Part shown: positions 14,669 through 39,009 of the stretch, piece by piece
How the letters are laid out: the number at the start of each line of letters is the position of its first letter
Position numbering within the stretch: the first letter of the stretch is position 1
From: Ignavibacteriales bacterium
Lineage (GTDB): Bacteria > Bacteroidota > Ignavibacteria > UBA10030
Direction of reading: 5' to 3'
Length of the DNA stretch: 64,000 bases
Assembly: GCA_016192345.1 (NCBI GenBank)
Contig: JACPUH010000002.1
Span: 8,875 to 72,874 of the forward strand
The notes under the pieces: generated by a model
Seen by the model: the letters and a program-made list of their open reading frames with translations, nothing else
Database searches by the model: none
Told to the model about the DNA's origin: nothing
Made by a program: the position numbers and the translations under genes

Positions 14669-14698
14669 ATTGTTTCCTCCTGAGCAATACCGTTCAGA

Positions 14699-15583
14699 TT
14701 AAAATTCAAACTCGCCTGTCCCGATACTGATCTTTCCGTTGATGTGTTTGTTGGTGTTAATAATTTTCATCGATGCATCGACCACCTCTTCGTGGCAACG
14801 GCTGCATGGGGTTGTTGCAAAATCATAAACGGGATGCGTCCCACCCTGGGCCGTCGTTTTTGGCAAAGCCCGCTCTGCCAAGGTCGGCTTCGTCACATCC
14901 CCGTGACAGGTTCCGCAGGCCGCTTGCGTCCCGGAGACATCATTCCAGACCGGAGCAAAATTATTGCCGTTCCTGAAATTCCCGTGGCAATAGGTGTTGG
15001 AACATTTGAGGGTCTGTGGGTCATAGGACGGAGCAGGGGTAGGCTGCGGGAGATACGACCTCGCGAACAGAATATCGGCAGGTGTAACGACTCCGGCGGC
15101 ATCAATGTGACCGGGCGAAGAGACGGACGAAGGAACGGCATGACATTCCGTGCAAGGAGCATTCCTGGAGATTGCGCCCCCCAGCAAGTGCAGCTGGTGC
15201 GCCCCAACAGCCCGGGCCGTGCGCGCGGTATTCCTGCTCAGGTCGCGCGGGGGAGCCGGGTTCACCGTTCCATGGCAGGTGGAACAATTTTCCGGGCCGG
15301 CCGCGTTGGTATGGCATGTCAGGCACGAAGTCTGTGCAATGCCGCCGTCATACCGGGAACCATGACATGTCTGGCAACGCTTCATATCCCAACCCTGGCT
15401 CCGGATTTCCATCCCGTGAAAGTTGGCCGATGCGGGTGTCGTCCAGCCGTCGGGATGCACCTGCAATTCCCCCGTGGAGGGGGCCGGCAGATCCGTCTTC
15501 AGTTCACTGCAGCCGGTCAATCCGAAGGCCACGACAAGCGCCAGAAGGACACCGGAGAGACACACTCTATGCATGCTTTTCAT
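14699..15583 (-). CDS. Heptaheme lipoprotein cytochrome c with Geobacter-type CxxxxCH...CxxCH domain
   Basis: Lipobox LTGC; CQTCH, CLTCH, CSTCH, CTECH, CSNTYCH, CGTCH, CSRCH; CSNTYCH...W...CGTCH and H.NG.I match the CxxxxCH/CxxCH repeat style. Confidence 0.85.
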   Translation of the reverse strand: MKSMHRVCLSGVLLALVVAFGLTGCSELKTDLPAPSTGELQVHPDGWTTPASANFHGMEIRSQGWDMKRCQTCHGSRYDGGIAQTSCLTCHTNAAGPENCSTCHGTVNPAPPRDLSRNTARTARAVGAHQLHLLGGAISRNAPCTECHAVPSSVSSPGHIDAAGVVTPADILFARSYLPQPTPAPSYDPQTLKCSNTYCHGNFRNGNNFAPVWNDVSGTQAACGTCHGDVTKPTLAERALPKTTAQGGTHPVYDFATTPCSRCHEEVVDASMKIINTNKHINGKISIGTGEFEF

Positions 15584-15612
15584 GATCGATCTTCCAGAAC
15601 AGAAGTGACATG

Positions 15613-16851
15613 TTACTTATGGCAATATCCGCAGAAGCCCGTACCCTTCACACCCCCGACACGAGCGTTGGCATCGCTGTGACACGTAAAGCAATTGGCT
15701 CCGGGATCGCTATGCCAGTCGCCGTTCACCCCGGCCATGAATCCGCGGATGTGCGTCTTCGGATCCGTCCCTTTAAACCCGTCGGAATCCATATGGCAGG
15801 TGACACATGTCGGATCAGCGCCCTGAGCGTCATGACAGGAAGCACAGGTTTCCATGTCGCGTCGCGCCAGTTGTGCATGCAAACCGCCACCGGTTCCGAC
15901 GCCAATCGTCACGAATCCCGCCTGCTGATGCGTCGTTGGCTTGAATGTAACTTGATTGACATTTCCCCCTGCGGCGTGACACGTTGCGCAGAATTGTCGC
16001 TGACTGTGACAGGTCTGGCAATCGGCCGCTTTCCCCTGGGCCGCGATGCCGTGGGTGAAACGGAAGTTAAGATCGTGCACCTTCAGGAGCGAGGTCGATT
16101 TGCCGCGGTCCATCGTCATCAATCGGGGCGAGCGCGGAGAGATCGGGTCCCTCCCTGCCAAATCCACCTTTATGAGGTCCGTACCGTTGTGGCAATCGAT
16201 GCATGATTCCTGGGTGTGACAGCTTGCGCAGGACGCAGTGGAAAGCCGTGCGGTCTGTTTATGCTCCCGGACAAAATCAGTTCTGTTATGGTCCACCGGG
16301 CGAAGGCCCGCAAGGTCCGTATGACACGTTTCGCAGGTGTTCGAGGCCTGCACATCATTGTGACACGTATTGCACGTAGCCATGGCGGGAACGAGCGCCC
16401 CTGTGGGCATGCCTTCCTTTTCGAGATTGGTATGGCACGTGACGCAATCCATTTTTTGAACGCCGACATGCGCCTCGTGCGAAAAGACCAGCTCGCGCTG
16501 CGGACTTGCCGCCGCGGCGTAGGTGCTTTGGTCGCTGCTGGTATGGCAATAGGTGCAGTTCTGTGCCAGTTGCTCTTCGTGGCAACTCTGGCAGTTTTCT
16601 TTCTTGGCCAAGAGGTTCTCGGAAGAGAGCTTGCTCGTCGCAGCAGATTCATGGCAGGTGGCACACTCCAGGCCCGCGCCTTCCACATGCAGGGAGTGAG
16701 AGAACCTGATCGCTTTCGGTTGTTCCGGCTGGTCACCGACCTCCCTGGACTTCGTGACCATCGTGAACATAAGGGCGAGGACGCCGGAAATCATGACCAG
16801 CGCATACACCTGCTTCAGCGTCAATAGTCGGATTCGTCGGAGGATAGACAT
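15613..16851 (-). CDS. 14-heme periplasmic cytochrome c (c3-like N-terminus; ExtA-like)
   Basis: N-terminal hydrophobic signal/anchor, FSHSLH and FSHEAH c3/c7-type motifs, 14 CxxCH counted; starts 7 nt after the porin stop. Confidence 0.9.
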   Translation of the reverse strand: MSILRRIRLLTLKQVYALVMISGVLALMFTMVTKSREVGDQPEQPKAIRFSHSLHVEGAGLECATCHESAATSKLSSENLLAKKENCQSCHEEQLAQNCTYCHTSSDQSTYAAAASPQRELVFSHEAHVGVQKMDCVTCHTNLEKEGMPTGALVPAMATCNTCHNDVQASNTCETCHTDLAGLRPVDHNRTDFVREHKQTARLSTASCASCHTQESCIDCHNGTDLIKVDLAGRDPISPRSPRLMTMDRGKSTSLLKVHDLNFRFTHGIAAQGKAADCQTCHSQRQFCATCHAAGGNVNQVTFKPTTHQQAGFVTIGVGTGGGLHAQLARRDMETCASCHDAQGADPTCVTCHMDSDGFKGTDPKTHIRGFMAGVNGDWHSDPGANCFTCHSDANARVGGVKGTGFCGYCHK

Positions 16852-16858
16852 AAGGGGC

Positions 16859-18151
16859 TCAGAAAATATTCAATCGTTCGCTGACAAGAAAACTTCCGCG
16901 CACAAAAAACCTCACATCACTTTGGTAGATCGTATTCTGAATCCATTGGACCTGGGTATCGAGGCCAAGAGCGGGGACCGGCCGGAAGGCAACCCCGATG
17001 GCTGCGCTCAAGGCATCCTCAAGCTTCGAGGCAGATTCACTCAGTTTATACTTTGCATAGCTCAGCAGGAGCGACGGCGTCAGCCTGGCCTCCATCAGCG
17101 GATAGCTGACTTGGGCGGAGGCGGCGCTCAGTTCACCGGCATAGCCCACGTTCCGGGCAAGACTGACGGAAACATATTTTCCGCTCACACCCAGCGTCAC
17201 GCGGTCCGACGATTCGCCATCCCCATAGTCAACCGACCCGTATTTACCGAAGAGCTGCCATGAGGTCATCAGCGCATATTCTGCCCCCACTTCATACTCT
17301 TTCAACGTGTTGAATGTAAAAACCGAGAAGATGGAGTTGTAGGAGATGCGGGGCTCGCGCTGGAGGTATTCTCCCGTAAGACCAAGCGATTCCATCACCT
17401 TGACACGCGTAAAAAACTGGGCGCGCGCCATCTTTTCCGTATCAAAATCATAATCATAGCGGGCATACCCGGAGACAAGGTCTTCATAGTCAACGTTCAC
17501 ATCGCCGCTGAGGTAGCGCTCCGAGCTCGCCATCGGCTTGATTTCAACCAGGTACGGATTAAAGAGCGAGTCGCGTCGGTATGCGCTGTAGGGCTCCGCC
17601 TGAATTGTCCTGTTCATGTAACTGACGGAAACGCGGGCAGCCTCAAGAGGCTCTGCAACAACCTGGGCACCGGCCATCCTGTTATTGCTTTTGTCGCCGA
17701 TCATTTCCGCCTTCGATCCCGGGGGCGGAAGCGCTCCATAGTACCCGACGACCTTGAGCCTGGAATCGAGAAATTTCAGCGAAGCCAACCCACCGTCGAT
17801 GGTCCCGTTTCCCACACCTGCAAAGACCAGCTGCCGTCCGACGCTTACGTTCGCCACATCGAAAATATTGGACCATTTCAGATAGAGATTGTAGAGCCGG
17901 TACTTCGATTCTTCCGCGACGGGTCCACTGAGATCGGTAAAACCGTTGCCGTAGGCATGGAACGAAAGGTCGCCTCCGGTCAATGACAACGAGAGGGAGG
18001 TGTGACCAAAAAGATGATCGGACGAGCGGCCAACGGTGTCCTGGCGCTGCCAGGCGTAGGCCGACGTCACCACCCTGGCCTGAAAGAGCTGGGCCGAAAG
18101 GGTTGAGGTCACAAGTGCTGAAAGGATAAGGAACTGCAGGAGCCTTCGCAT
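16859..18151 (-). CDS. Outer-membrane beta-barrel, porin of a porin-cytochrome complex
   Basis: Signal peptide MRRLLQFLILSALVTSTLSA, alternating hydrophobic beta-strands, C-terminal Phe (...SERLNIF); start at ATG 18151 with GGAGA RBS; about 430 aa. Confidence 0.8.
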   Translation of the reverse strand: MRRLLQFLILSALVTSTLSAQLFQARVVTSAYAWQRQDTVGRSSDHLFGHTSLSLSLTGGDLSFHAYGNGFTDLSGPVAEESKYRLYNLYLKWSNIFDVANVSVGRQLVFAGVGNGTIDGGLASLKFLDSRLKVVGYYGALPPPGSKAEMIGDKSNNRMAGAQVVAEPLEAARVSVSYMNRTIQAEPYSAYRRDSLFNPYLVEIKPMASSERYLSGDVNVDYEDLVSGYARYDYDFDTEKMARAQFFTRVKVMESLGLTGEYLQREPRISYNSIFSVFTFNTLKEYEVGAEYALMTSWQLFGKYGSVDYGDGESSDRVTLGVSGKYVSVSLARNVGYAGELSAASAQVSYPLMEARLTPSLLLSYAKYKLSESASKLEDALSAAIGVAFRPVPALGLDTQVQWIQNTIYQSDVRFFVRGSFLVSERLNIF

Positions 18152-18192
18152 GGTCGTTTCTCCAAAAAATAGAATTCCATCCACACTCCGTT

Positions 18193-18209
18193 TACAACTG
18201 CCGTGCCGA
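18193..18209 (-). promoter_or_regulatory. Candidate sigma54 promoter of the porin-cytochrome operon
   Basis: Minus strand TCGGCAC-GGCAG-TTGTA, about 43 nt before ATG 18151; TTGTA at -12 is the variant seen in E. coli pspA. Confidence 0.5.
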
Positions 18210-18222
18210 CATGCAAAAACCG

Positions 18223-18315
18223 GGAAAACCTCCGAGGTTGTTCAAAAATTCAACAATTTTTCCGGTCCAGTGTAGACCTTTCCTACACCTAAGAAACAAC
18301 CGTGGGAGGTTTTCC
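18223..18315. other. Multi-branched inverted-repeat element between c554 and the porin
   Basis: Outer 11-bp GGAAAACCTCC/GGAGGTTTTCC, inner 7-bp GGTTGTT/AACAACC, enclosing hairpins AAAAATT-CAAC-AATTTTT and GTGTAG...CTACAC. Confidence 0.55.
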
Positions 18316-18343
18316 AGAATAGGGGAATATGGTCCGGTCCGAT

Positions 18344-18889
18344 TTACCCGGCTTTCGGGACCGGATGATGGATCTTCTCCCAGTACTCTTTGAATTTGAA
18401 CTCCTTATAGAACGGACTCTTCGCATTGTGGCATGTTTTGCAGAATGCCTCGATCGCGGCTTCATCCTTGAACTCCGTCAATCCTTCCGCAACAGCTTTC
18501 TCCTTGCTCTTCATGACTGTCATGTTGCGATAGGCTGAACCGGCGCCATGGCATGTTTCGCACTGCACGCCGTCTTTGATATCAAAACCCTTGTCGAGCA
18601 GTTTGGCATCTGCAACCGTGGTATGGCACTCAAGGCACTCTTTGGCTCCTGCCGCCGGCCCAGAGATGCCTTTCGCCTTGGCAACCTCATCGGCTTTTGC
18701 AGTTGTCAAAGTCTTGTAGGCACCGGCATGGGCGCTCTTCATCCATATATCCTTTTGCTTACCTTGTTTCTCCGTCTGGTGACACATAAAGCAAGATTTT
18801 GTCCCTACATACTTCTTCTGCGCGCTTGCCACAGTCGGCACGAGTAAGACGATGGCAACTATCAAGCTGGCAGCATTGATTGTCTTCAT
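18344..18889 (-). CDS. Tetraheme cytochrome c554-family periplasmic protein
   Basis: Signal peptide; YVGTKSCFMCH...W..SAH..AY, CLECH, GVQCETCHGAGSAY, CKTCH. Confidence 0.9.
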   Translation of the reverse strand: MKTINAASLIVAIVLLVPTVASAQKKYVGTKSCFMCHQTEKQGKQKDIWMKSAHAGAYKTLTTAKADEVAKAKGISGPAAGAKECLECHTTVADAKLLDKGFDIKDGVQCETCHGAGSAYRNMTVMKSKEKAVAEGLTEFKDEAAIEAFCKTCHNAKSPFYKEFKFKEYWEKIHHPVPKAG

Positions 18890-23452: not shown

Positions 23453-23467
23453 AGCAACTCCGGTGTA

Positions 23468-25189: not shown

Positions 25190-25220
25190 ATCACTTCTCC
25201 TCTGTCTTTGATGTGGATGA

Positions 25221-25695: not shown

Positions 25696-27180
25696 CTAGC
25701 GATTCTGCACCTGTTCTTTTTCGATGCGTCGGATCGAGATATAGAGCGCGAAGGCGAGAATTGTGATAATCAGGGACGCAATGAAAAGCCCCCATCGGCG
25801 GAAATAGTACTGGTCAATTGCTTCGCTTGCTTCTGTGGAGACCTTCGCGGCGGATCCAAAACCGCGGGTGGCAACTTCCGAAAACTGATCAAGATCGAAT
25901 GAATGGACCTTTGTGCGAGTTTCCAGACGGGCTTGCCGAATTTCCCGCAACTTGAACTTTGCTTCTCCCACTTCCATCCCTTTTTGCTCCGCCTCGTCCA
26001 CTAGCATGATGGCGTTTTCTTCACTGACGATAAGGCTGTCCGCAAGTGAGCGCATCGTTCGGGCTATTTGATATCCCTTGATGTTGCTATTCTCTTTATG
26101 ACACCATGCACACACGGCTCCCTCCCCAACTCCAAGAAGCTCATCCTTGGCGGCGACGATCTCGTGGTTCCCGTGGCATGTTTCGCACTCGGGCAGTTTT
26201 CGGGAATCAAATGCCTTCTTATGAGGGCTGGAAGAAAAGAGTTCTGCATTCAAAGCGTGACATGTCCCGCATACCTTGGAAACTGATTCCACGCCCGGGG
26301 GCGCGGCACCATGATTGCCGTGACAATCATTGCACGCTGGCGCTCCAAGGTCCTTTTTCTCGAGGAGCGCCTGGCCATGCACGCTCCTGGCGAATTGTTC
26401 GAATTGGTCCGAAGCTATGCCATACGGTCTCATATAGGTCGCGTCGGAATGGCACTTGGCACATGTGGCGGGAAGTTTCGTCGGATGAACCTGAGACCTG
26501 GGATCTTTTGCCGAGAGAATCTCATGACTGCCGTGACAGCTGGCACACTCTGCTGTCTTAGGGTCCCCGTTTTTATTTCGCTTGCCGTGAACGCTCGTTT
26601 TGTATTTTTCAAGCTGATCAACCGGGAGGCTCGGATTATAGGTCCGCATGAAGGTCGCGTCAGAATGGCACTTCGCGCACGTAGCGGGAAGGTTCAAAGG
26701 ATGAACGGGGGAAGATCGATTTGTTTTTGTCACGATTCCGTGAGCTCCGTGACAGGAGGTGCACTGTGCAATGTGCTCTCTCCCTGAAGTAGAGAGCTTT
26801 CCGTGGACGCTTCCTCCCACAAGCTCCATCTGGTCCAAAGGAATAGCGGAATTGTACTTCTTGACCATCACTCCCGCGTCCGAATGGCATTTTGCGCATG
26901 CGACAGAAATTCGGTCTCCCTTCGGAACGCCGATGAATCCCGCCGCCGTTCCCATCGCTTTCTCCATGTCGTCGGTGTGTGAATCGCCTCCATGGCAGGA
27001 AGCGCACGTAAGCCCGTTCCGGAAATGAATATCGCCTTTGAACGCGGTCGATGCATTGTCCTCCAGCGTGGAGTGACATGTAAGACACTGGTCCTGAGCC
27101 TGGGCGGTCCCAAAGGCCGTTGGAAGGGCGAGCACACTGCAAAGCACTATGGCAAGAGCATTGTTGTTCACGAGAGCCAT
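25696..27180 (-). CDS. 11-heme cytochrome c with C-terminal membrane anchor, partner of the Rieske/cytochrome b pair
   Basis: Signal peptide, 11 CxxCH, repeated SVHG...C..CHG.H modules, helical stalk, C-terminal TM; start overlaps the cytochrome b stop by 13 nt. Confidence 0.9.
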
Positions 27181-28247
27181 CCGATCGTGGTAAGGATGAT
27201 GATGTAGATCAGCGCAAAGAGCCCAATATAGTTGATGAACCGGTTCTCTTCCCCTCTCGAACTCTTCTTATCCCAGAACGGTATAAACATCCAGACAACA
27301 CCTGCGAGGCTGAAAAGCAGGATGCCGACAACTTCCCCCTCCAGGAACCAAAGTTCACCCGGAATGTACTTGAGAGTCTGGAACATGAACATAAAGTACC
27401 ACTCCGGCTTGATCCCGGCGGGGGCGGGAGCAAAGGGATCCGCCTTAACGCCAAGTTCCCAGGGGAAAAAGACGGCCAGGATGGCAAGGAGGTTGAGCAC
27501 GAGAAGCCACAGCAACAGATCGCGCAGCATGAAATTCGGGAAGAACGGCATCGTCTTCTGATCGGTGACCGGCAACCGTTCATACGATAAGGGTTTGCTC
27601 ATCCCTTGACGCTGGACAAGGAGAAGATGGAGGCCCAACACCACGGTAAAAATGCCGGGAAGCACGGCGACATGGAATCCGAAGAACCGGGAAAGGGTCG
27701 CGCCCGTCACGTCCTCTCCACCGCGCAGAAATACCATGATCGGTTCTCCGACAATGGGCAGGACCCCTGCGATGTCGGTCCCGACTTTGGTTGCGAAGAA
27801 CGACACCTCGTTCCACGGCAAGAGATAGCCGCTGAATCCGAAGCCCATACCGAGGAACAGCAGGATCATGCCGCTCAGCCACGTCAATTCGCGCGGCTTC
27901 CGGTACGCTTTTTCGAACAGCACACTGAACATGTGGATGAACGCTGAGAGGATGAACAAATTTGCCGCCCAGCTATGGATGGATCGGATGAGCCAGCCGA
28001 ACTCCACTTTCGCCATGATGAACTGAATGCTCTCAAACGCAAGCTCCTCACTCCCTTTGTAGTAGAGGAGAAGGAGGATGCCGGTGACAACCTGAATGAT
28101 GAAGAGGAAGAGGGAAACCCCGCCGAAGTAATACCAGACTGAGTGGCTGTGTACCGGCACGCTCTTCTTCTCCAGGAAGTGCATCACATCGCTTAACTGG
28201 ACGCGCTCGTCAATCCAGGTGAAGGTTCGGTTCCAGAGTGTCTTCAT
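27168..28247 (-). CDS. Cytochrome b of a Rieske/cytochrome b complex (b6 and subunit IV fused)
   Basis: YYFGG...[15 protein letters not shown]...[23 protein letters not shown]...LHLLLV (four heme b His), Qo motif PEWY. Confidence 0.95.
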
Positions 28248-28702
28248 GTGCGGCTCGAAATGATGACTTCATCGGCTTGGATGATGACACGGTATTCATC
28301 CAGCGGCCGCGGTGGAGGGCCGCCCACCACGCGGCCGTTCAAGTCGTATTTGCCATTATGACATGCGCACCAAATCACTCCCGTGTCTTTTCGAAACTGG
28401 ACCGTGCAGTCGAGGTGCGTGCAGGTCGCGGAAAACGCCCGAACCTCTCCCTCGGCCGTCCGAATCATCATTACGGGTTTGTTGCCGAAACGGACGATCA
28501 CCCCACTCTCCTTCTCGATCTCGCTGAGCTTGCCCGCTTTGACGCTCGTGACTTCCACGTCCCCCTGCTTGGGGGGCTTGAGATAGGCAAAAACCGGGTA
28601 GAACACGGCACCCAGCCAGGCGAGAATCCCACCCCCCAGGAGGTATTTCAGAAAATCGCGCTTGCTGTGTTGTGGCTGGTCCAGTGTGGTGGGAGTATCC
28701 AT
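28244..28702 (-). CDS. Rieske [2Fe-2S] subunit
   Basis: Tat-like KRDFLK TM anchor; CTHLDC and CACHNGKY boxes; GPPPRPL; ATGA overlap with cytochrome b. Confidence 0.95.
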
Positions 28703-28709
28703 AATGCTC

Positions 28710-30203
28710 CTATTGGGCCTGGTGACAATCGCTGCAGTTCATTTCTTTCCATGCCGTACCGATGTCGACAGGGTGCTCGTACTCGAGCCCTTCAAGGGAC
28801 ATCTTGAGTTTTTCGTTCTCGTACTGTTGAGCAACAATGGTATGGCACGTATTGCAGTCCCTCGACAGGACTTTGCCGTCCTCGCTGACGTGCTTACCGT
28901 CATGACACCGGAAGCATCCCGGAGCGTACATATGGCCGATATGGTCCGGGTACTGACGCCAGTCATGTTTCATTTCCGGGAAGTAATTCCTCCGATATAC
29001 CTTCTGGAGCTCCGTAATGGCCCGCTCGATGCTCTCATGCCGTTCAGCCGCGATGACGGGGTAGTTTGCCCTGTAGTATTCCTCGATGACGGTCCTGATG
29101 CTGTCCGCCGCCTTCTCCCTCGTCGTGTACGGATGTTCCAGCACCTGCACCGCAAGGCTCTTGACGTACGGAAGGTTCCGGTCAAGCCACCCCAGGTCCA
29201 TGATATGATTCACGCTTCGCTGGGGGGGCTGGTAAATGTGTGTCGGGCGGTTGTGGCAGTCGATACAATCCATTCTTCGCGTCGTTGCCAAGGCCAGTTC
29301 TTCCTCCGTCGGCTTCACCTCCGTACTCTTGTAGACACGTTCCACTCCGTCCCTGCTTCGTGACTTGACCCACGGGATGACCATGCGCTGCCGGTCGAGC
29401 GCCGTGTAGGTCACCTCATTATCAATGTTCATGTGCCAATGGATGCCCGAGTTCGCACCGGATTCCGGAACACCCCCTCCGATCTTCATCAAGAGAGAGA
29501 GGTTCCACTTGGTATTCTTTTCGTCCGAAATATAATTCGTGATTTCCTTCTTTTTCTCGTTGAAGAAATGTTGCGGCCAGTGGCATTGTTCGCACGTTTC
29601 CTGTGCAGGCCGCAGGTTCTCGATGGGAGTCGGAATGGGTCGCGGATATTTATTGAACGCCGTGGCATAGAGCTGGTACGCACCGGAGAGTTTTGAGCGC
29701 ACAAACCAGCCCGCGCCGGGTCCGATGTGACACTTCACGCAACCGACCCTGGCGTGGGGAGAGAATTGATAGGCAGTGTATTCCGGCTCCATCACTTTGT
29801 GGCAGGTTTCCCCGCAGAATGCGTCAGAGTCGGTGTATTCGTATGCCTTGAAGCTTCCGAAGGCCGAGAACATGAGAAGCAGAATGCTTCCGACGGAAAC
29901 ATAGAAGAACGCAGTTCGATGGCGCGGATTGTTCAAATCGATCTGTGGCAGGCGCAGCCCATGCGGTTTTCCGCTTCTTTCCCTTTTGTGCTCTCTCCAG
30001 ATCCCCACCGCGATAAGAGAAAGTCCAAAAATCAAAATGGCGGGGAGAATCACGAACGCAATGATTCCCATGTACGGCTTTTGCTCTTCCGAAAAGAACT
30101 CCAGGGCTATAAGAAACAGGATGAGGCCGAAACTGACCGCGGCAACGGTTGCCCCCACCAGCGTTATGAGGTTGTAGAAACTATCCGGGAAGATTCTCTT
30201 CAT
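28710..30203 (-). CDS. imcH: ImcH-like inner-membrane heptaheme NapC/NirT-family quinol dehydrogenase
   Basis: Three N-terminal TM helices, CGETCH plus six CxxCH; HIGPGAGWFVRSKLSG, PIENLRPAQETCEQCHWP, GIHWH, RRMDCIDCHNRPTHIY and HIGH.Y.PGCFRCHDGKH match my recollection of Geobacter ImcH. Confidence 0.8.
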   Translation of the reverse strand: MKRIFPDSFYNLITLVGATVAAVSFGLILFLIALEFFSEEQKPYMGIIAFVILPAILIFGLSLIAVGIWREHKRERSGKPHGLRLPQIDLNNPRHRTAFFYVSVGSILLLMFSAFGSFKAYEYTDSDAFCGETCHKVMEPEYTAYQFSPHARVGCVKCHIGPGAGWFVRSKLSGAYQLYATAFNKYPRPIPTPIENLRPAQETCEQCHWPQHFFNEKKKEITNYISDEKNTKWNLSLLMKIGGGVPESGANSGIHWHMNIDNEVTYTALDRQRMVIPWVKSRSRDGVERVYKSTEVKPTEEELALATTRRMDCIDCHNRPTHIYQPPQRSVNHIMDLGWLDRNLPYVKSLAVQVLEHPYTTREKAADSIRTVIEEYYRANYPVIAAERHESIERAITELQKVYRRNYFPEMKHDWRQYPDHIGHMYAPGCFRCHDGKHVSEDGKVLSRDCNTCHTIVAQQYENEKLKMSLEGLEYEHPVDIGTAWKEMNCSDCHQAQ

Positions 30204-30309: not shown

Positions 30310-31554
30310 TCAAGGCCTGGCGACGTCCTTGGCACGTTGTCTTTGAAGAAAGCGCTCTATCAGTTGTTTATCCGACAACGATGTTTCGATACGGCGCAAA
30401 GCCTCTTGAATGTCTTTACTGGAGGAAACGTATGAGAGCCTGATGTACTCCTGATCTTCATCAAAGGGCCGGTGGCCGAAACACTGCTGCCCGAGCACTG
30501 CAACACCGGCTTCGAGAAGCAAAAATTGCTGCAGATCGCGTGAGCTTGAAAATCCATGGTTGCGGCACGCCTGCGTGACGTTAGGATAAGCGTAAAAGGC
30601 ACCTGCGGGAGTGTGGCATGAAAATCCCTCGATCTTGTTCAGCCCTTCTACAATGAGGTCCCGATTTCCGCGAAACTCCTCAACCATGGCTGTGACGGAA
30701 TCCTGGGAGCCGGTGATGGCCTCCATGGCGGCATGTTGCGTGAACGTCGCCGTGCAGGAATTGGAGTTGGTCATCAAACGGCCGACATGAATCGCCAGCT
30801 CTTTGGGCATGACGCCGTACCCAACCCTCCAACCGGTCATCGCATACGTTTTCGAATGCCCGTCGAGAATAATCGTTCGCTCCTTCATTCCCGGGAATTG
30901 ACTGATGCTCTCCGGTTTGCCCGAATAGAGGATGCGGGAGTAAATTTCATCCGAGAGGACCCAGAAGTCGTGCTTGAGAGAGAGTTCGGCGACTTCATGG
31001 AGATCCCGTTTGGGGATAACTCCGCCAGTGGGGTTATGAGGCGAGTTCATGATGACCATTTTTGTCCGATCGGAAATTTTCGATCGGAGCTCCTTGACGT
31101 CAAAACTGAACTGACGCTCTTCCTGGAGCCGCAACGGAACAGGGGTTCCACCGGCAAAGTTGATCATCGATTCGTAAATCGGGTAACCGGGAACAGGATA
31201 AATCACTTCATCGCCCTCCTCGATGCACGCCAGGATGCTGAAAAAAATGATCGGCTTGCCGCCGGGGACAACGACCACTTCGCTCGGGTGGACGGGGATT
31301 CCCCGTGTTGATGAAACATAGTCGGCGATGATTTGGCGGAACTCTGGAATACCTGACGAAGGGCTGTAATGCGTGAGATCGTTGTCCAGAGCCCTCTTGG
31401 CCGCTTCTTTGATGTTCGGCGCAGTTGCGCAAGCCGGTTCACCAATCGAGAGCGCAATGATGTCCCGCCCTTTCGAGCGGAGTTCATTGACCTCTGCGAG
31501 TACTTCAAACGCGGTTTCAGTGCCGAGACGTGACAAGCGGTTTGCGAGTTTCAT
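30310..31554 (-). CDS. PLP-dependent class I/II aminotransferase (aspartate aminotransferase-like)
   Basis: SIGEP, VVPGGKP, PGYPIY, NSPHNPTG, LSDEIY, DGHSKTYAMTGWRVGY (PLP Lys), YIRLSY. Confidence 0.93.
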   Translation of the reverse strand: MKLANRLSRLGTETAFEVLAEVNELRSKGRDIIALSIGEPACATAPNIKEAAKRALDNDLTHYSPSSGIPEFRQIIADYVSSTRGIPVHPSEVVVVPGGKPIIFFSILACIEEGDEVIYPVPGYPIYESMINFAGGTPVPLRLQEERQFSFDVKELRSKISDRTKMVIMNSPHNPTGGVIPKRDLHEVAELSLKHDFWVLSDEIYSRILYSGKPESISQFPGMKERTIILDGHSKTYAMTGWRVGYGVMPKELAIHVGRLMTNSNSCTATFTQHAAMEAITGSQDSVTAMVEEFRGNRDLIVEGLNKIEGFSCHTPAGAFYAYPNVTQACRNHGFSSSRDLQQFLLLEAGVAVLGQQCFGHRPFDEDQEYIRLSYVSSSKDIQEALRRIETSLSDKQLIERFLQRQRAKDVARP

Positions 31555-31575
31555 GATGTTCTCCTGTCGTGTAGA

Positions 31576-33609
31576 TCAATACTTCATTGCGACAGATCGT
31601 TTTTTGATGGTGATGAGCTCAAGGGCTTTGTGTGCGATATGTTCTGCGCTCACTTCAAATTCCTTCACAAGTTCCCACGGGGCACCGGATTCGCCAAACC
31701 GGTCCTTGACGCCAATCGACCCGGTAATGACAGGAACCTGATACAAGAACGGGGACTCCGTGATGATCCTGCAAACCCTGTCTGCCAGACCTCCGATTTG
31801 ATGTTCCTCGGCTGTCAGAACCACCCCGGTGGCCGCTGCGGCATCCGTAACCGCCTTCTCGTCAAGGGGCTTGAGCGTGTACATGTTGACGATGCGGGTC
31901 TCCAGATCAAAATCTTTTTTCAGGATATAGGCTGCCCGCATCGCTTCCGGGACCATCGGGCCGCAGGCAATAATGGCCAACTGCTCCTCTTCACTTGAAT
32001 ACTCGGAGGCCAGAATCGTTTCGAAGGCATCCACAAATCGCGGTTGTTCGCCTCTGAAGCGTATGACGTTGGCTTTGCCAAACGTGAAGGGAGTCTTCTC
32101 CGTTGTGACGATCGGAGTCGCTTCGCGCGCGAACCGAATAAACTTCGGACCCTGCATGCCAAAGAGAAAATACTCGGTCGCCTTCTTTGTTTCCGTCGTA
32201 TCGCACGGGACCGAGACTTTCATATTGGGTAATCCACAAACCTGGAAGATATCCTCCAGCGCCTGGTGGGTCGCACCATCGGGACCGACGGAGACCCCGC
32301 CATGCGCTCCTGCAATCAAGACGTTCAATTCTCCATAACACACTGTCGTCCGAATCTGATCGAGGCAGCGGCCGGCCGCGAAGGTGCCGTAGCTTCCGAG
32401 AACCGGGATCTTTCCTTCGCGGGCAAGTCCCGCTGCAACACATACCGCGCTTTGTTCGGCAATCCCCACGCTGACCCAGCGGTCTTTTCGCTCAGGGTGC
32501 TTATCATAGAAATCGCTGATCGTAATCGAACCGGAGATGTCAAGACCGAGACAAACGATCCGCTCATCTCCCCCATGCTCCTTCAACGCGTTGCCGAATC
32601 CCTTGCGCGTGGGCTGCATCTCGACCTTCATCAGTTCATCGGTGTTCCACCAGTAATTGCGTTTGAACTTGGGCATCTTCTTTTCCAACTCGGCTTCAGC
32701 TTTCTTCTGATGGGACTTTGCCGAGAGGAGCATTTCATCAACCGGCAGTTGGCCTTTGAGCCCAAGTTGTTCAACGCCCTCATACATTTCTTCCATGCTC
32801 GGGGTTTTGCCATGCCAGCCGGCGACGTTCTCCATGAAGTCGACGCCTTTTCCCTTAACCGTCTCGGCCAGAATCACCACCGGTTTTCCTTTGACCGCCT
32901 GCGCACGATCGTACGCTTTCACAATCTGATCCATCGTGTGCCCGTCTGTCTCTATCACTTCCCATCCAAAGGAACGGTACTTCTCCGCCAGCGGATCGAC
33001 ATCCATCACGTCTTTGACCCAACCATCGATCTGGAGACGGTTTTTGTCGATGATCCCAATGAGGTTGTTGAGTTTATAATGGCCGGCCTCCATCGCGGCT
33101 TCCCAGATTTGGCCTTCCTGCTGCTCTCCATCCCCCATGATGCAATACACCTTGCTGTTCAGTTTCTTCATCTTGAGGCCCAGGGCCATCCCGACAGCGA
33201 TACTGAGTCCTTGACCCAGCGAACCTGTCGACACTTCGACTCCCGGCAGTTTCAACCAATGAGGATGACCCTGAAACAAACTTCCGAATTTGCGCAGCGT
33301 AACGACATCCTTGACATCGAAGAAGCCTGCCATACCAAGTCCCAAGTAGAGGCTCGGCGCCTTGTGCCCAGCCGACCACACGATTCTGTCCCGTCCCTCC
33401 CATGCAGGAACTTCCGGATCCAGTTGAGCTGCATAAAGATACAACGCTGCTGTAAGATCCATGACCGAAAGCGTTCCGCCGGAGTGACCGGAGCCGGCAG
33501 CGGCAAGGCAAATCAGATCATATCCGCGCATCATGCGCGCCGCTTCTTCCAGTTGCGAGACGGTGTAGGTCGTCCGAATCTTACCGGTTTGCGAGTTCAC
33601 GAGGGGCAT
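31576..33609 (-). CDS. tkt: Transketolase (N- and C-terminal subunits of the split type fused)
   Basis: SGHSGGTLS, FQGHP...STGSLGQG, GDGEQQEGQIWEA (ThDP motif), GIAEQ, GPDGATHQ. Confidence 0.9.
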   Translation of the reverse strand: MPLVNSQTGKIRTTYTVSQLEEAARMMRGYDLICLAAAGSGHSGGTLSVMDLTAALYLYAAQLDPEVPAWEGRDRIVWSAGHKAPSLYLGLGMAGFFDVKDVVTLRKFGSLFQGHPHWLKLPGVEVSTGSLGQGLSIAVGMALGLKMKKLNSKVYCIMGDGEQQEGQIWEAAMEAGHYKLNNLIGIIDKNRLQIDGWVKDVMDVDPLAEKYRSFGWEVIETDGHTMDQIVKAYDRAQAVKGKPVVILAETVKGKGVDFMENVAGWHGKTPSMEEMYEGVEQLGLKGQLPVDEMLLSAKSHQKKAEAELEKKMPKFKRNYWWNTDELMKVEMQPTRKGFGNALKEHGGDERIVCLGLDISGSITISDFYDKHPERKDRWVSVGIAEQSAVCVAAGLAREGKIPVLGSYGTFAAGRCLDQIRTTVCYGELNVLIAGAHGGVSVGPDGATHQALEDIFQVCGLPNMKVSVPCDTTETKKATEYFLFGMQGPKFIRFAREATPIVTTEKTPFTFGKANVIRFRGEQPRFVDAFETILASEYSSEEEQLAIIACGPMVPEAMRAAYILKKDFDLETRIVNMYTLKPLDEKAVTDAAAATGVVLTAEEHQIGGLADRVCRIITESPFLYQVPVITGSIGVKDRFGESGAPWELVKEFEVSAEHIAHKALELITIKKRSVAMKY

Positions 33610-33816: not shown

Positions 33817-34659
33817 CTAGCGGTATGCAAACACCATGGCGTAGATGATCATGACGATCAACAGGAAGCCGAGGGAGAGTGCAGTCCACGCAAACACCTT
33901 CACGGTTCGAAGGACGATGGGGGGATAAGGATCCGCCATCATATTCTCAAGCTCACCTGATTTCTTGAGCGCCTCATATTCTCTGGGGCGCTCTTCCATG
34001 AACTCCTCCAGCGGGACGCGTCCCGTGAAGATCACGAGATCCATGGGAAACTTTTCCGGACGGAGATGGGTATTGAAAAAATGGACTGTGAAGATAAACC
34101 CCACAGCAAGCAAGGCTTCGTCACTGTGGATAATTGTGGCAACGTTGATGAACCAGCCCGGCATGAACTGAGTGAAGAACTCGGGGAACCAGAGCATGAG
34201 ACCGGTCGATCCGATAATAAACACTCCCCAGAAGACAGCGAAGTAGTCAAACTTTTCCCAATACGTCCAGCGTCCGTATTCCGGTCGAGGTCCGAGATTG
34301 AGAAACCATTTGATGGAGGCGACGAACTCCCGCAGGTCCTGTTTCGTCGGAAGCATCGTGTCGGGTCCCAGGAGCAGTCCCCGCAATGATCCTGCCTCCT
34401 TTCGCTTGCGTATGAGCACGTTGTAGAGGTGTGCAAAAAAGATTCCGAACATAAAGACCGCAGCAATCCGGTGGATATAACCGGCGGATTCATATCCTCC
34501 CAACATTCTTGAAAGGACATTCGCCCAGCCGGTGTAGGAGAATTTCAGGGTCATGCCAGTGAGAGCAAGACTGATAAAACTCACGATCATGACAATATGA
34601 AGCACTCGCTCGAGACGGGAGAACCGCACAACCTGGTGTTCCGATTCCGGACTATGCAT
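33817..34659 (-). CDS. Diheme cytochrome b (FdnI-like fold), CbcL-type membrane domain encoded separately
   Basis: [65 protein letters not shown] match my recollection of the CbcL C-terminal domain. Confidence 0.85.
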
Positions 34660-36646
34660 TGTCGTTCTTCGACTCCTGATTCTTTTTCTCCAACCTTCTC
34701 CGGCGCTCCCGCCTCATTTGCAGGGCTCGCGGGAGCCAGAGGAGAGTGTGGGCGCCGCCGAGAACAAAAGTTCCAATGAGCAGGCCGGTCATTCCCCAGA
34801 ATGTCCAGAAGAGGAACGGATACTTGTCGGGATCGTGATGGGTTGCGTGTGTGAGGTATCCTGCAAAACGGCGCGTGGCACCTGGATGGCATTTTTGACA
34901 CGTTCCGACAACGTTGTCGTGACTCAAATGCGATTGGGGATCGGCAACGGGACGAATGTCGTGAGCTCCGTGACAATCGTAACATTTTGCCGTTTGGGTG
35001 TAGCCGAGCTGCGAGACTTTTCCGTGATAGGTGTCGAAGTACGTGGTGGCAATCTTCTCATGACACTGTCCGCATTTTGTCATGATGTCGAGCTTAAATC
35101 CTGCAATGTCTGTCCGGCGGATGGTGTGTGCAGAATGACAATCGTTGCAGACGGGGAGTTTCTTGTCCGTCTTATGCTTCAAGGTGCTATGGATGCTTTG
35201 CACGAACTGTTCCTGGATCCCGTGATGGCATCGACCACATGTGACTGGTACGTTCTCGGGATTCACGCTTGACGCCGGGTCGGAGATCGGGCGGACATTG
35301 TGCGCAGGATGGCAGTCGCTGCACGTCGCAGTCACGGTGAGACCGCTTTTCAGCAATCCTTTCCCATGGATGCTCTCCGTATAATGGTTGACGATCTCGT
35401 GTTCCGAGCCCGTGTACCGCATGGCTGCTTTCTTCCCTTCCTGGTGGCACTTGCCGCACAGCCGGGGGATGTTCAGGGCAAAGATCGGGGAGCTCGAATC
35501 CGTCCGTCCTTTCACTTCGTGCGTACCGTGGCATTCCTTGCAGGTTGGCCCATTCGGGTCATTGTTGGCGATAAGTTTGCCGTGCATGCTGCCCTGATAT
35601 TGCTGCCCTACTTCCGCGTGACATGACGAACAATCAACTTTCTGCGCAATGGTCTCACACGGACGATGCCTGGACGCGTTGACACCTGCATGGCATTGAC
35701 TGCAGGAGATTTTCTGATGTTTCGAATGAGCCAGCGTATCCGATTGAACCGCCAGGGACCTGCCATCGGCGGAGGACCGAATGGAGAGGTTCGCGTGACA
35801 GCGCATGCAGTCCTGGTCCGCCATTCCCTGATCGTAGAAAACCTTGCGCGCTTTGTGGGGCTGATGACAATCCACACATGCCGGGAGAACGTGTTCTTCT
35901 TTTTCCCACAATGCACCCTTGATGACTTTACGATGAACGTCCTCAATTTGCGCGTGACACACCGTACACGTCGCGGCGATATTTCCCCGCGCGATCGAGG
36001 ATCGGGGATCGGTATGGGGGAGAATGAAGTGCGGTGTATGGCATGAGGCGCAATTGGCCGAGACAACGAGGCCCCGTCTCATGAGACCCTCGGCATGGAT
36101 GCTTTCAGAGTAATTCTCGAGAATATGCGACTGAAGAATGACCCGCTCTCGTTGCACGCGAGTTCCTTCCTGATGGCAGCGTCCACACATAAAGGGAATG
36201 CGGAGGGGCGAAACAGCCGACTCGGCGCTTTTGGTGCGGGCAATCGCGTGGCTGCCGTGACACGATTGGCAATTCGGCGCCAGCGCATCGCCACGGGCAA
36301 CCGCTTTGCCATGGAGACTTTCCTTGTGGAGTTCCTCTTCGGAGGTATGGCACGTGCCGCATACCACCGGCACCACAGGGACCCCATGCGGCATTTCTTT
36401 CCCTTCAAGATCCACGTGGCACGTGACGCACGAAAGATCTGCGTGCACCGACTTCAAAAAGATTGCCTGATCGACAAAAAGCGATACGGGTTTCCCTCGT
36501 CTCTCCGTGGTCAGACTTTTGTCTTCGTGGCACGTGAAGCAGTCGCTGTTATCCTGGCCAAGGGCCACCCCGCCAAGGAGGATAGTCAGGAACAAAGCCA
36601 TGATGGTCCGCCGTCGGATCGCCGGCAGCACGGGAATCGTTTTCAT
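34652..36646 (-). CDS. 19-heme cytochrome c with C-terminal TM helix (expanded CbcL-type heme domain)
   Basis: Signal peptide, 19 CxxCH counted, internal duplication, C-terminal HATHHDPDKYPFLFWTF...GAHTLLW; stop overlaps the cytochrome b start by 8 nt (ATGCATAG). Confidence 0.9.
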   Translation of the reverse strand: MKTIPVLPAIRRRTIMALFLTILLGGVALGQDNSDCFTCHEDKSLTTERRGKPVSLFVDQAIFLKSVHADLSCVTCHVDLEGKEMPHGVPVVPVVCGTCHTSEEELHKESLHGKAVARGDALAPNCQSCHGSHAIARTKSAESAVSPLRIPFMCGRCHQEGTRVQRERVILQSHILENYSESIHAEGLMRRGLVVSANCASCHTPHFILPHTDPRSSIARGNIAATCTVCHAQIEDVHRKVIKGALWEKEEHVLPACVDCHQPHKARKVFYDQGMADQDCMRCHANLSIRSSADGRSLAVQSDTLAHSKHQKISCSQCHAGVNASRHRPCETIAQKVDCSSCHAEVGQQYQGSMHGKLIANNDPNGPTCKECHGTHEVKGRTDSSSPIFALNIPRLCGKCHQEGKKAAMRYTGSEHEIVNHYTESIHGKGLLKSGLTVTATCSDCHPAHNVRPISDPASSVNPENVPVTCGRCHHGIQEQFVQSIHSTLKHKTDKKLPVCNDCHSAHTIRRTDIAGFKLDIMTKCGQCHEKIATTYFDTYHGKVSQLGYTQTAKCYDCHGAHDIRPVADPQSHLSHDNVVGTCQKCHPGATRRFAGYLTHATHHDPDKYPFLFWTFWGMTGLLIGTFVLGGAHTLLWLPRALQMRRERRRRLEKKNQESKNDNA

Positions 36647-38862
36647 GGTGATTGATCGTCTTTACGTCCGGACAAAGCTCTCATCTCTTCCTGTGCCTGT
36701 TCGCTGAGCACCCTTTCCAGTTCCAGCGGATGCTCTTCCTGCATCTCAGCTTCGCTCAGTGTTCCTGTCCAGAAAGCAAGATTGATGGGGTAGGTATCCG
36801 GATTGAACATGACGTAATAGAAGTGCCACACAATGATTGCCAGCGTGGCGAGCCAGGCTTCATAAAAATGGATCAAACGGGCAACGTCGTATCCGAGCTT
36901 GGTCAGAAGCCCGATGAAGGTGTTGTCGAACCACATGATGAATCCCGTGACCCCCATGACAATCGTTCCCCACACGAGCGCCCAGTACTCGCTCTTTTCG
37001 ATATAGCTGAATCGACCGAACCTCGGCTTTTCATTCGTGATCCACAGGTTGTATCGAAGGACATCGCGCGCGTCCACGAGATCCTGGAACCTTGGCATGA
37101 GATCGCGAATCAGTTCTTTTCCCCGGGGAATGAACAAGATATAATACGTATGGTAGAGGGCTGCAAGAACCATGACGACGGCTGCCACCCTATGGACAAG
37201 ACCCCGAAGGTCGAAGGCTGCGTCGCTGAGATTCCGGATCGAGACTACCCACCATGCATCAGGATAGCGTAGCATGAACCCCGTGATCACCAGAGTTACA
37301 AAGCTCACAACGAGTGACCCGTGCTGAAGGCGTTCGCTCAGGCTCATGCGCAGGTACAAATGATGTCCCACATGTTCTTCGTGGATCACGCCACGCCGAA
37401 CCAGCAGTTTCCTGCGCGCCTTCCTGATGAAATCCAGCGCATTGTGGAACACCATGCCGCCGATGGTCGACAGGATCAGCATGAGGTAGAGCGTTGCTAC
37501 CCAATACAGCAAGGGGTCGTTTTCACTGTTCGTAATATCCACATGCACGGACCCGATTGCGAATCGTTCATTGGCCCCCCTGTGACATTTCCCGCATGTT
37601 TCCGCAAGATTGTTTTTGTTCGTCGGGGAGGCAGGATCCGCGGACGGCTTGATGCTGTGAACACCGTGACAGCTTGTGCAATTGGCCACTTCGATCGATC
37701 CACCGCGGATCGCCAGGCCGTGATAACTGTCCGTAAATGTCGCGAAACGGTCCGATGCAATGCCGTACTTCTGAGTCAGCTTCACGGAACTATGGCAGGG
37801 AGAACAGACCTGCGCGCTCACATTCTTTGCGGCAATCGGTGACGCCGGGTCGGTATGAGCGAGAATGTTGTGCTCGCCATGACAATTGGTGCAAACGGGC
37901 GATTCCAAGTTTCCCAAACCCGATGCGATGCCATGGACGCTTTCATTGAATTCTTTCGTGATTTCCGCGTGGCACTTTGCGCATGTGCCGGGAATATTGA
38001 ACTTATAGACTTTCGATTCAGGGTCATTGCCCTTACGCATTTGGTGGCTGCCGTGGCAATCGACGCAGTTCGCTGCCTGGGCATTGCCCGATTGCAGTGC
38101 CGATCCGTGAACGCTGTGTTCATACGCGGCGATAAACCCGGCGGAGGGGGCAACGCGGGCCCGCACACTCTCATCGTCGAGATGGCACGAGAGGCAGAAT
38201 TTCTCCTGGGCGGTTTTCACCTGGACCGAATCCCTCCCGGGCCGAATCTTGGTAAGGTCATTCCGATGACATGTAATGCAGATGGGAGCACCCAGGATGC
38301 CCGCTTGGAGGGCTTGGCCATGTGCGGACTCGAGAAAAGTCTTTCGTTCCGTGAGGTGGCACGTACCGCAGAAATCCGGCTGCTTTGCACGAGATGTGCG
38401 TGCCGCGGGACTCCCTGGCGAAACCACATCATGAGTCCCATGGCAACTTTTGCAGGAGACGTCGGGGGTGCCGTCGTGCCCTGTTGCTCTCGCCATCTGA
38501 GGATGGAACGCGTGCTTGGAAGGAGCGTCGCGATGACACGTCTTACAGTTGACCGGCGTGATCGTTTCCTTGTGGGGAACATTTTCGGCGTCGAATCCAA
38601 CGTGGCAGGCCACGCAAACGAGTTTGCCGTGGGGAGATTTTCTGAGGACGGCTTCGTCGGCGTGAAGAGAGACTTCCCTCCCATTCCGTTCCATGGTGAG
38701 TGAAGGCTCACTGTGGCATGCGAGGCAATCCGCCCTTGTCTGTGCAAAGAGGGAACCACCCGGGGCAGAAAGGACGACCAGGAAAAGGTACGACAGAACA
38801 GATCCCCGTCGCTGATGAGACCTGGAGAGAATTCGTTTGAGAAGTATGAACGCTACAAACAC
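36643..38862 (-). CDS. 13-heme cytochrome c fused to a cytochrome b domain (Cbc-family quinol:cytochrome c module)
   Basis: 13 CxxCH followed by ERLQHGSL, LVHRVAA, RFSYIEKSEYWALVWG, IHFYEAWLATLAIIVWHFY; start uncertain (GTG 38862 with AAAGG preferred over TTG 38922); ATGA overlap with the next gene. Confidence 0.88.
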   Translation of the reverse strand: MFVAFILLKRILSRSHQRRGSVLSYLFLVVLSAPGGSLFAQTRADCLACHSEPSLTMERNGREVSLHADEAVLRKSPHGKLVCVACHVGFDAENVPHKETITPVNCKTCHRDAPSKHAFHPQMARATGHDGTPDVSCKSCHGTHDVVSPGSPAARTSRAKQPDFCGTCHLTERKTFLESAHGQALQAGILGAPICITCHRNDLTKIRPGRDSVQVKTAQEKFCLSCHLDDESVRARVAPSAGFIAAYEHSVHGSALQSGNAQAANCVDCHGSHQMRKGNDPESKVYKFNIPGTCAKCHAEITKEFNESVHGIASGLGNLESPVCTNCHGEHNILAHTDPASPIAAKNVSAQVCSPCHSSVKLTQKYGIASDRFATFTDSYHGLAIRGGSIEVANCTSCHGVHSIKPSADPASPTNKNNLAETCGKCHRGANERFAIGSVHVDITNSENDPLLYWVATLYLMLILSTIGGMVFHNALDFIRKARRKLLVRRGVIHEEHVGHHLYLRMSLSERLQHGSLVVSFVTLVITGFMLRYPDAWWVVSIRNLSDAAFDLRGLVHRVAAVVMVLAALYHTYYILFIPRGKELIRDLMPRFQDLVDARDVLRYNLWITNEKPRFGRFSYIEKSEYWALVWGTIVMGVTGFIMWFDNTFIGLLTKLGYDVARLIHFYEAWLATLAIIVWHFYYVMFNPDTYPINLAFWTGTLSEAEMQEEHPLELERVLSEQAQEEMRALSGRKDDQSP

Positions 38863-39009
38863 GGGGCAAACCTTTTCGTGAGAGTCGCTGTGAAGGTCAG
38901 CGACATCGACAGTGATATTCAAGTACGACCGACCTTCTCATCCCGGAGATATTGGTTGATCTTTGCACACCATACATCGTCCAAGGCCAACAGCGGGCTT
39001 GTTAAAACA

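Follow-up and report, generated by a model that had tools for sequence, protein, structure and literature searches.

An ImcH-family cytochrome encoded with a Rieske/cytochrome b pair and an 11-haem cytochrome in Ignavibacteria-type bacteria: a candidate Q-cycle route for menaquinol oxidation

How energy is conserved at the inner membrane of metal- and electrode-respiring bacteria is unresolved; the characterised quinol oxidases of Geobacter, ImcH included, appear electroneutral, and the identity of the partners of ImcH was left open by Levar et al. 2014 (PMC4251993). Both questions are raised by a four-gene unit on the minus strand of a 64-kb stretch of DNA from an Ignavibacteriales bacterium (contig JACPUH010000002.1; hereafter the window), at positions 30203-25696. 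It encodes, in this order, an ImcH-like heptahaem cytochrome, a Rieske protein, a cytochrome b and a c-type cytochrome with eleven haem motifs, with the coordinates given in a preliminary description of the locus. The reading that we favour, with confidence somewhat above even, is that a menaquinol:multihaem-cytochrome oxidoreductase capable of a Q cycle is encoded by the unit and expressed along with a separate quinol dehydrogenase of the ImcH type, and that both feed, by a multihaem route, extracellular or other high-potential acceptors.

All the genes relevant to the unit lie on the minus strand, and its four open reading frames are closely packed. The imcH-like gene ends in a TAG codon, separated by 7 nt (gagcatt) from the Rieske ATG at 28702; this codon sits within TAGGAG, a Shine-Dalgarno-like site for the Rieske gene, so that the Rieske ribosome-binding site overlaps the imcH stop. 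The Rieske stop and the cytochrome b start are joined by an ATGA overlap (28247-28244), and the 11-haem reading frame, with its start at 27180, shares 13 nt with the end of cytochrome b, including the stop codon TGA (27170-27168) of the latter. These three junctions, together with the PEWY motif treated below, had been listed in the preliminary description and proved exact when the sequence letters were checked.

As for the first protein, hydropathy placed three N-terminal transmembrane helices at residues 15-33, 47-65 and 98-116, aligned with those of Geobacter ImcH, and seven haem motifs were found: one CX3CH (CGETCH, residue 130) and six CX2CH (CVKCH, CEQCH, CIDCH, CFRCH, CNTCH and CSDCH), a pattern conserved across the six lineages that carry the unit. 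Pfam recognised a NapC/NirT region (PF03264, 45.3 bits against a cut-off of 24.1), and the PDB sequence match was to NrfH (E = 2e-4, residues 112-212). The Geobacter reference was P0290 and not GSU3259 of strain PCA itself; this 507-residue protein was found by a metagenome scan with the published primer 3259KHis1, and it is 98% identical to P0291, named 'MULTISPECIES ... [Geobacter]'. The P0291 loci, one of them on a 3.79-Mb chromosome, have exact 3259CompF and K2 primer sites directly before the start codon, and the remaining GSU3259 primers fall at their expected positions with 0-3 mismatches.

The window protein and P0290 are 45% identical over 489 residues (E = 2e-170, six gaps), with all seven haem sites in register. 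E127, K173 and Y188 of Geobacter ImcH, proposed for menaquinol oxidation in a preprint (bioRxiv 10.1101/2023.05.03.539133), aligned with D125, K171 and Y186; the two proteins therefore share an acidic residue, a lysine and a tyrosine near haem 1, in addition to the helices, the haem pattern, the NapC/NirT region and a length of about 500 residues; the last ~14 residues of the Geobacter protein are missing here. Searching the window with Geobacter ImcH by tblastn returned one strong match (28716-30179, E = 9e-146; next best 0.019), and a tree built from 144 members of the family has the Geobacter clade nested among the representatives found with the window protein, which itself falls in a supported clade with other Ignavibacteria-type proteins. 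The ImcH-like character claimed in the preliminary description is borne out by identity, architecture, quinol-site residues and this common tree: the heptahaem is, by these comparisons, a genuine member of the ImcH family. A shorter variant was also met on two metagenome contigs (L008 and L012), with CX3CH and five CX2CH motifs and an end just past the sixth haem. On L012 it is succeeded by a multihaem gene, and the variant has a 20-nt primer site in common with Geobacter imcH, via the conserved FPRMKVTW region.

Regarding the Rieske protein, it has a KR-type motif like that of twin-arginine signals (SKRDFLK), a transmembrane anchor, and the cluster boxes CTHLDC and CACHNGKY, which are invariant in the six lineages; Pfam returned PF00355 (53.5 bits) and TM_PetC, and PetC-like NCBIfam matches remained below cut-off. 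A glycine occupies the position of the serine found in high-potential Rieske proteins. This replacement suggests a centre of low-to-middle potential, suited to menaquinol.

The cytochrome b has about seven transmembrane helices and carries a b6-like and a subunit-IV-like half on a single polypeptide (Pfam Cytochrome_B, 175 bits, and Cytochrom_B_C; best PDB sequence matches to cytochrome b6, at 1e-55, then to bacterial cytochromes b). Its haem ligand pairs, H-x13-H at residue 91 and H-x14-H at residue 192, have b6-type spacing and are conserved in the six lineages, as is the PEWY motif of the Qo site, which is intact. At what we take to be the position of the haem-ci cysteine of b6 it has WYYFGG, without a cysteine; thus, the features of the b6f subtype are absent on two counts, since there is no cysteine for haem ci/cn, and b6 and subunit IV are not separate proteins. 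In one relative (L004, 9959-11033) the cytochrome b was called as two reading frames of 111 and 252 residues in an otherwise intact operon, and this split is a frameshift or an assembly error.

No gene for a monohaem cytochrome c1 or f was found within the unit with Pfam or NCBIfam, and the last gene stands in the place where such a gene would be expected. Its product has eleven CX2CH motifs, an N-terminal signal peptide and a single C-terminal transmembrane anchor (residues 465-483), hence the topology of cytochrome c1, with no Pfam match to c1 or f. Replacement of c1 by the 11-haem protein, as first proposed, agrees with these data, which support its taking the genetic and topological place of cytochrome c1/f. 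A di-haem module occurs three times in the sequence (CAKCH ... M ... SVHG ... CxxCHG.H), and an alignment of 49 homologues revealed 10 invariant histidines outside the motifs, together with invariant Met250 and Met376. With ten invariant distal histidines for eleven haems, at least one haem is not of the bis-His type, and a putative His/Met haem of higher potential could be the entry point for electrons from the Rieske cluster.

The gene order was then compared in nine lineages besides the window, a small sample, taken from the ImcH side (P0118 and P0069 loci) and independently from the 11-haem side (L021, L022 and L023). The order imcH, Rieske, cytochrome b, 11-haem recurs in five other Ignavibacteria-type lineages: the P0118 loci (L004) have genes for a CbcL-like protein, ImcH, Rieske, cytochrome b and a 488-residue multihaem protein, the L021, L022 and L023 loci have CbcL-like, ImcH, Rieske, cytochrome b and 11-haem genes, and the P0069 loci (L001-L003) keep the same order with genes for a 246-residue multihaem protein, a 4Fe-4S protein and NrfD inserted between imcH and Rieske. 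Adjacency of imcH and Rieske is thus not peculiar to this assembly, and the claim that the four genes form one unit holds. The ImcH-like proteins of the lineages that share the order are 58-75% identical pairwise, so its retention is more than chance; mean pairwise identities over the six lineages are 66% for ImcH, 68% for Rieske, 79% for cytochrome b and 65% for the 11-haem protein, and every cofactor motif of the four proteins is kept.

The junctions differ in how strictly they are preserved. Cytochrome b and the 11-haem gene overlap by 4-13 nt in all six lineages, and Rieske and cytochrome b overlap by 4 nt in three lineages and the window, with gaps of 8 and 27 nt in the other two; imcH and Rieske are separated by 7, 12, 12, 52 and 58 nt, and by the three inserted genes in the remaining lineage. 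The last three genes are therefore tightly coupled in every relative, and the linkage of imcH is looser. Outside the Ignavibacteria-type clade, no Rieske link was found at the sampled ImcH loci, either of Geobacter or of four other ImcH lineages: imcH is solitary in L017/L018, it has no companion but a small multihaem cytochrome gene in L019 and L020, and a CbcL-like or b561 gene stands upstream of it at the P0272 locus and in L016. At the P0291 loci it is likewise solitary, between divergently transcribed genes, in keeping with the monocistronic GSU3259/imcH and its divergent housekeeping flanks reported by Levar et al. 2014 (PMC4251993), whereas in the window it is the first gene of a Rieske/cytochrome b unit. 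The nine sampled lineages suggest that the link of imcH to Rieske/b is confined to the Ignavibacteria-type clade.

This pattern bears on whether ImcH is tied physically to the Rieske/b complex, as a stoichiometric subunit or fixed partner of the Rieske/b/11-haem assembly, for instance for potential-dependent routing or bifurcation towards low- and high-potential acceptors. Such a supercomplex would account for the 7-nt gap with its overlapping Shine-Dalgarno site, for the presence of imcH in the operon of the triad in 6/6 lineages of the clade, sampled from both ends, and for the single supported clade formed by the Rieske/b-linked ImcH proteins. However, the variable spacing, the three-gene insertion in L001-L003 and the solitary imcH of Geobacter and L017/L018 indicate a separate module; moreover, the six gaps over 489 residues leave no room for an extra domain in the window ImcH relative to the solitary Geobacter protein. 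A Rieske fusion occurred in none of the 10 elongated ImcH family members scanned with Pfam, of 150 representatives listed; these members are lengthened by further haem domains, by a class I cytochrome c or by a b561 domain. One homologue, P0125 (L024:4261-6465, 734 residues), has an N-terminal b561-type (Ni_hydr_CYTB) cytochrome b fused to a full ImcH-type heptahaem, with an overlapping gene for a 511-residue multihaem protein upstream and no Rieske/b genes downstream; by the Rosetta-stone argument this fusion points to a CbcL/b561-type module, not the Rieske complex, as the partner of ImcH. The supercomplex is thus unlikely, and the evidence points to co-regulated modules rather than to one complex. 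Of the alternatives offered in the preliminary description, co-regulation or physical association, the former is a reasonable inference from the operon structure and the latter is unsupported.

The closest working partner of ImcH may instead be a CbcL-type b module, as the P0125 fusion suggests, and a module of this CbcL/b561 type directly precedes imcH in most relatives. The operon is a natural context in which to ask what the partners of ImcH are, with the fusion evidence in favour of the b561-type module. A broader arrangement, in which the triad, ImcH and the CbcL/b561 module form one quinol-oxidation hub, possibly a supercomplex, that routes or bifurcates electrons according to acceptor potential with Q-cycle coupling, strikes us as improbable; if it were true, it would give a higher H+/e- yield on minerals than the ImcH or CbcL routes of Geobacter.

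Returning to the favoured reading, Rieske, cytochrome b and the 11-haem cytochrome would most likely form one bc-type menaquinol:multihaem-cytochrome oxidoreductase, as argued by their tight junctions, invariant motifs, the c1-like topology of the 11-haem protein and its possible His/Met haem. Quinol would be oxidised at the PEWY Qo site; the first electron would pass from the Rieske cluster to the membrane-anchored 11-haem subunit in the place of c1/f, and the second would travel over haems bL and bH to the Qi site, which would lack haem ci, in a proton-motive Q cycle. The ImcH-type protein would be a second, separate menaquinol dehydrogenase of the NapC/NirT type, electroneutral by analogy with Geobacter ImcH and co-expressed with the triad; both would supply a common periplasmic multihaem pool, and from there electrons could reach extracellular or other high-potential acceptors through the nearby porin-cytochrome conduit. 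We infer that the triad assembles, that it runs a Q cycle in this direction and towards such acceptors, and that it is co-transcribed with imcH. An extracellular acceptor is favoured because the window contains a porin-cytochrome-like cluster, which also follows the 11-haem gene in L004 and L023, and because CcmF is adjacent. The dedicated high-potential branch of the preliminary description, conserving more energy, is thermodynamically sensible as a putative route. For extracellular electron transfer coupled to a Q cycle, the operon is a concrete candidate, from a lineage of groundwater and sediment that is widespread and largely uncultured.

Several points weigh against this proposal. Multihaem chains of the bis-His type are usually of lower potential than a menaquinol-type Rieske centre is expected to be, and electrons could pass from Rieske to the 11-haem protein only if it had at least one high-potential haem. 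Nor is the acceptor necessarily extracellular, since the window also encodes a Nar-type nitrate reductase, NrfHA, alternative complex III (ACIII) and a Psr/Qrc-like enzyme. As to expression, the sequencing runs that match the locus are DNA metagenomes from groundwater, soil and sediment, with no RNA runs among them; a scan for sigma-70 promoters and terminators gave counts at or below the shuffled expectation and is uninformative, so that transcription of the four genes may be shared with the upstream transketolase and aminotransferase genes, or separate from it. Finally, the structural model of the 11-haem protein would also allow a catalytic role.

This model (AlphaFold2; mean pLDDT, the predicted local distance difference test, 81.6) has a long C-terminal helical hairpin followed by the anchor helix, and its best Foldseek matches were anammox hydroxylamine oxidoreductases (HAO), with NrfA and octahaem nitrite reductases ranking after them; a PDB sequence match to an octahaem nitrite reductase was weak (E = 1.6e-4 over ~60 residues). 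On these grounds, and with one haem lacking an invariant distal histidine, the 11-haem protein could itself be an enzyme of the HAO/NrfA kind, or the complex could be a general menaquinol:cytochrome c reductase for nitrite, N2O or oxygen reductases, with the link to metals incidental; Nar, NrfHA and ACIII in the window would fit this reading, as would the class I cytochrome c with four domains that comes immediately after the unit, and the Qcr complex of Epsilonproteobacteria is described, in references cited by PMC6896113, as serving periplasmic reductases. However, the HAO matches are themselves weak (E 3e-3 to 1e-2, template-modelling score 0.35-0.39), the 11-haem protein has no CXXCK motif, and an invariant methionine may be the missing haem ligand. 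A mis-called NrfA was also considered for the 11-haem protein and rejected, because a real NrfA (588 bits) is encoded with NrfH elsewhere in the window. Moreover, what the triad keeps in relatives is not the four-domain cytochrome c but the CbcL-like, ImcH, porin-cytochrome and CcmF genes. Overall, a role centred on periplasmic reductases appears quite doubtful, and the menaquinol-oxidising complex with a multihaem c1/f substitute remains preferred.

Table 1. Coordinates in the window of the four-gene unit and of the neighbouring genes discussed in the text.
Feature	Position	Strand	Length	Evidence or content
ImcH-family heptahaem inner-membrane cytochrome	28710..30203	-	497 aa	Pfam, motifs, hydropathy, BLAST, tree
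Rieske [2Fe-2S] subunit	28244..28702	-	152 aa	Pfam, motifs
Cytochrome b, b6-like half fused to subunit-IV-like half	27168..28247	-	359 aa	Pfam, PDB matches, motifs
11-haem c-type cytochrome, candidate c1/f replacement	25696..27180	-	494 aa	motifs, transmembrane helix, AlphaFold2
CbcL-like fusion	36643..38922	-	759 aa	13-haem c domain and b561-type (Ni_hydr_CYTB) membrane domain
19-haem cytochrome and separate b561-type cytochrome b	33817..36646	-		664 aa (34652-36646) and 280 aa (33817-34659)
Transketolase and class I/II aminotransferase	30310..33609	-	677 aa and 414 aa	Pfam
Porin-cytochrome-like cluster	13475..18889	-		4-haem c554-type cytochrome, 441-aa protein, then 14-, 6- and 5-haem cytochromes

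The window as a whole is a respiratory island. In order of falling coordinates, it begins with the Nar-type nitrate reductase, ACIII and NrfHA; TonB, universal-stress-protein and hemerythrin genes come next, and then the CbcL-like genes and the four-gene unit; below the unit are the cytochrome c with four class I domains, the Psr/Qrc-like enzyme, the porin-cytochrome-like cluster and CcmF (Table 1). The unit itself forms the downstream half of a 'quinol exit' gene string that is conserved among Ignavibacteria-type bacteria. As for the upstream half of this string, an equivalent of the CbcL-like fusion (717-740 residues) stands directly or two genes upstream of imcH in relatives, and the genes for the 19-haem cytochrome and the b561-type cytochrome b, a split CbcL-like pair, are found directly before imcH in relatives (compare L001 and L022). 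Here the b561 gene is separated from imcH by the transketolase and aminotransferase genes; the sampled relatives have no genes at that point, which makes this an insertion or rearrangement within the cytochrome string. The resemblance to CbcL (GSU0274) of Geobacter lies in these genes for multihaem c and Ni_hydr_CYTB domains; in Geobacter, however, cbcL and imcH are at separate loci and operate in different potential windows, whereas here they belong to one gene string interrupted by two metabolic genes.

Downstream of the unit, the porin-cytochrome-like cluster includes a 441-residue protein (16859-18184, minus strand) with no Pfam match, a signal peptide and a C-terminal phenylalanine. Its AlphaFold2 model, built with three sequences, is all-beta with ~24 strands and of low confidence (pLDDT 60), and Foldseek matched it to outer-membrane barrels only, with MtrB at rank 38 (E = 1e-7); it is probably an outer-membrane beta-barrel, as the model predicts, and with the flanking cytochromes it would form a porin-cytochrome conduit. 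In two relatives this cluster comes after the 11-haem gene, immediately in L004 and with a sensor gene between them in L023. A CcmF gene is adjacent in the window and in relatives. The four-domain cytochrome c (406 residues), directly downstream of the unit, does not keep this position in relatives. It opens a further stretch (18955-25252, minus strand) that continues with genes for a molybdopterin protein with a Tat signal (816 residues), a 4Fe-4S protein, NrfD and a QrcA-like pentahaem cytochrome; these last four are predicted to encode a Psr/Qrc/ACIII-like complex, and the set is not at the corresponding position in relatives.

The same neighbourhood allows electrons to be imagined flowing the other way, from extracellular Fe(II) or a cathode, with a Rieske/b complex driven by the proton-motive force reducing menaquinone, like the bc1 of acidophilic iron oxidisers. 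The groundwater origin would suit such a metabolism, the nitrate and nitrite reductases of the window would be a sink for Fe(II)-derived electrons, and multihaem conduits can work in either direction (PMC6295460); yet the reported carriers of ImcH homologues are so far all Fe(III) reducers (PMC6295460), no marker of the Cyc2 or MtoA type was identified in the window, and nothing in the sequence indicates a direction. Uptake is therefore given very little weight here, and oxidation of menaquinol is retained as the favoured direction.

With respect to known systems, ImcH homologues in Ignavibacteriae are already in the literature (Zhong & Shi 2018, PMC6295460), but the ImcH papers (PMC6295460; bioRxiv 10.1101/2023.05.03.539133) considered no neighbours other than c-type cytochromes and make no mention of Rieske, and a full-text literature search pairing ImcH with Rieske returned no description of an imcH-Rieske/b operon. 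The operon is a novel combination built from known components.

The first of two related systems is the Geobacter Cbc6/extKLMNOPQS locus, with which the preliminary description had suggested a comparison; it encodes the Rieske protein ExtO, the cytochrome b ExtP, ExtQ, the 12-haem ExtM and the 10-haem ExtN, and it is an uncharacterised, proposed link from membrane to periplasm (PMC5877670). In both loci, large multihaem cytochromes and a porin-like protein accompany a Rieske protein and a cytochrome b of the b6 type, and neither has c1/f. Orthology was nevertheless rejected, with NCBIfam scores of 205 against a cut-off of 290 for ExtP and 18.5 against 800 for ExtM, and no match for ExtO. In the window, unlike Cbc6/Ext, cytochrome b and subunit IV form one polypeptide, the multihaem gene comes after cytochrome b and its product is C-terminally anchored, there is no selenoprotein or rhodanese gene, and imcH is part of the unit.

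The second system is found in anammox bacteria, in which the Rieske/b complexes Kuste4569-4574 and Kustd1480-1485 have multihaem subunits instead of c1/f (PMC12954380). They have in common with the present unit a b6-like cytochrome b and a membrane-anchored multihaem cytochrome c, there a hexa- or octahaem protein that replaces cytochrome f; in one of them the octahaem subunit resembles HAO, to which the 11-haem protein is also closest in fold. In contrast, the unit in the window, which belongs to another phylum, has no NAD(P) oxidoreductase subunit, has eleven haems, has its cytochrome b fused to subunit IV and without the haem-ci cysteine, and has genes of the ImcH and CbcL types attached.

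As for relatives in culture, the genome paper of I. album reported ACIII and not a cytochrome b-Rieske complex, and Kao & Hunte list for this species only a cytochrome b with GPWY, fused to cytochrome c7; the PEWY complex therefore belongs to other, mostly uncultured lineages, and the closest homologues, by their NCBI names, are from metagenome-assembled genomes of Ignavibacteriales/Bacteroidota lineages.

A few further observations concern regulation and the outer neighbours. The sequence TAATTTTG at 30243-30250 (minus strand) precedes the imcH start by 40 nt, with a GGAG ribosome-binding site after it. It matches TAnnTTTG, which we take to be the -7 promoter element of the Bacteroidetes type; it may be a candidate promoter specific to the four-gene unit. 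Sigma-54-like -24/-12 sites with one mismatch each were found at 33670-33685 (minus strand; TGGTACGCGAATTGCT), 61 nt upstream of the transketolase start, and at 25506-25521 (minus strand; TGGCACGCTTCTTGCG), between the genes for the 11-haem protein and the four-domain cytochrome c; such sites number 47 across the window against 30 expected, and genes for a sigma-54 activator and a sensor kinase adjoin the cluster in the relatives L001, L021 and L022. Lastly, TonB_C and universal-stress-protein genes lie upstream of the CbcL-like gene in the window (39472-42348, minus strand) and in two relatives (L021:1831-4543 and L022:1-1740); both relatives also have a small c554-type tetrahaem gene there, and in the window a hemerythrin gene accompanies them.

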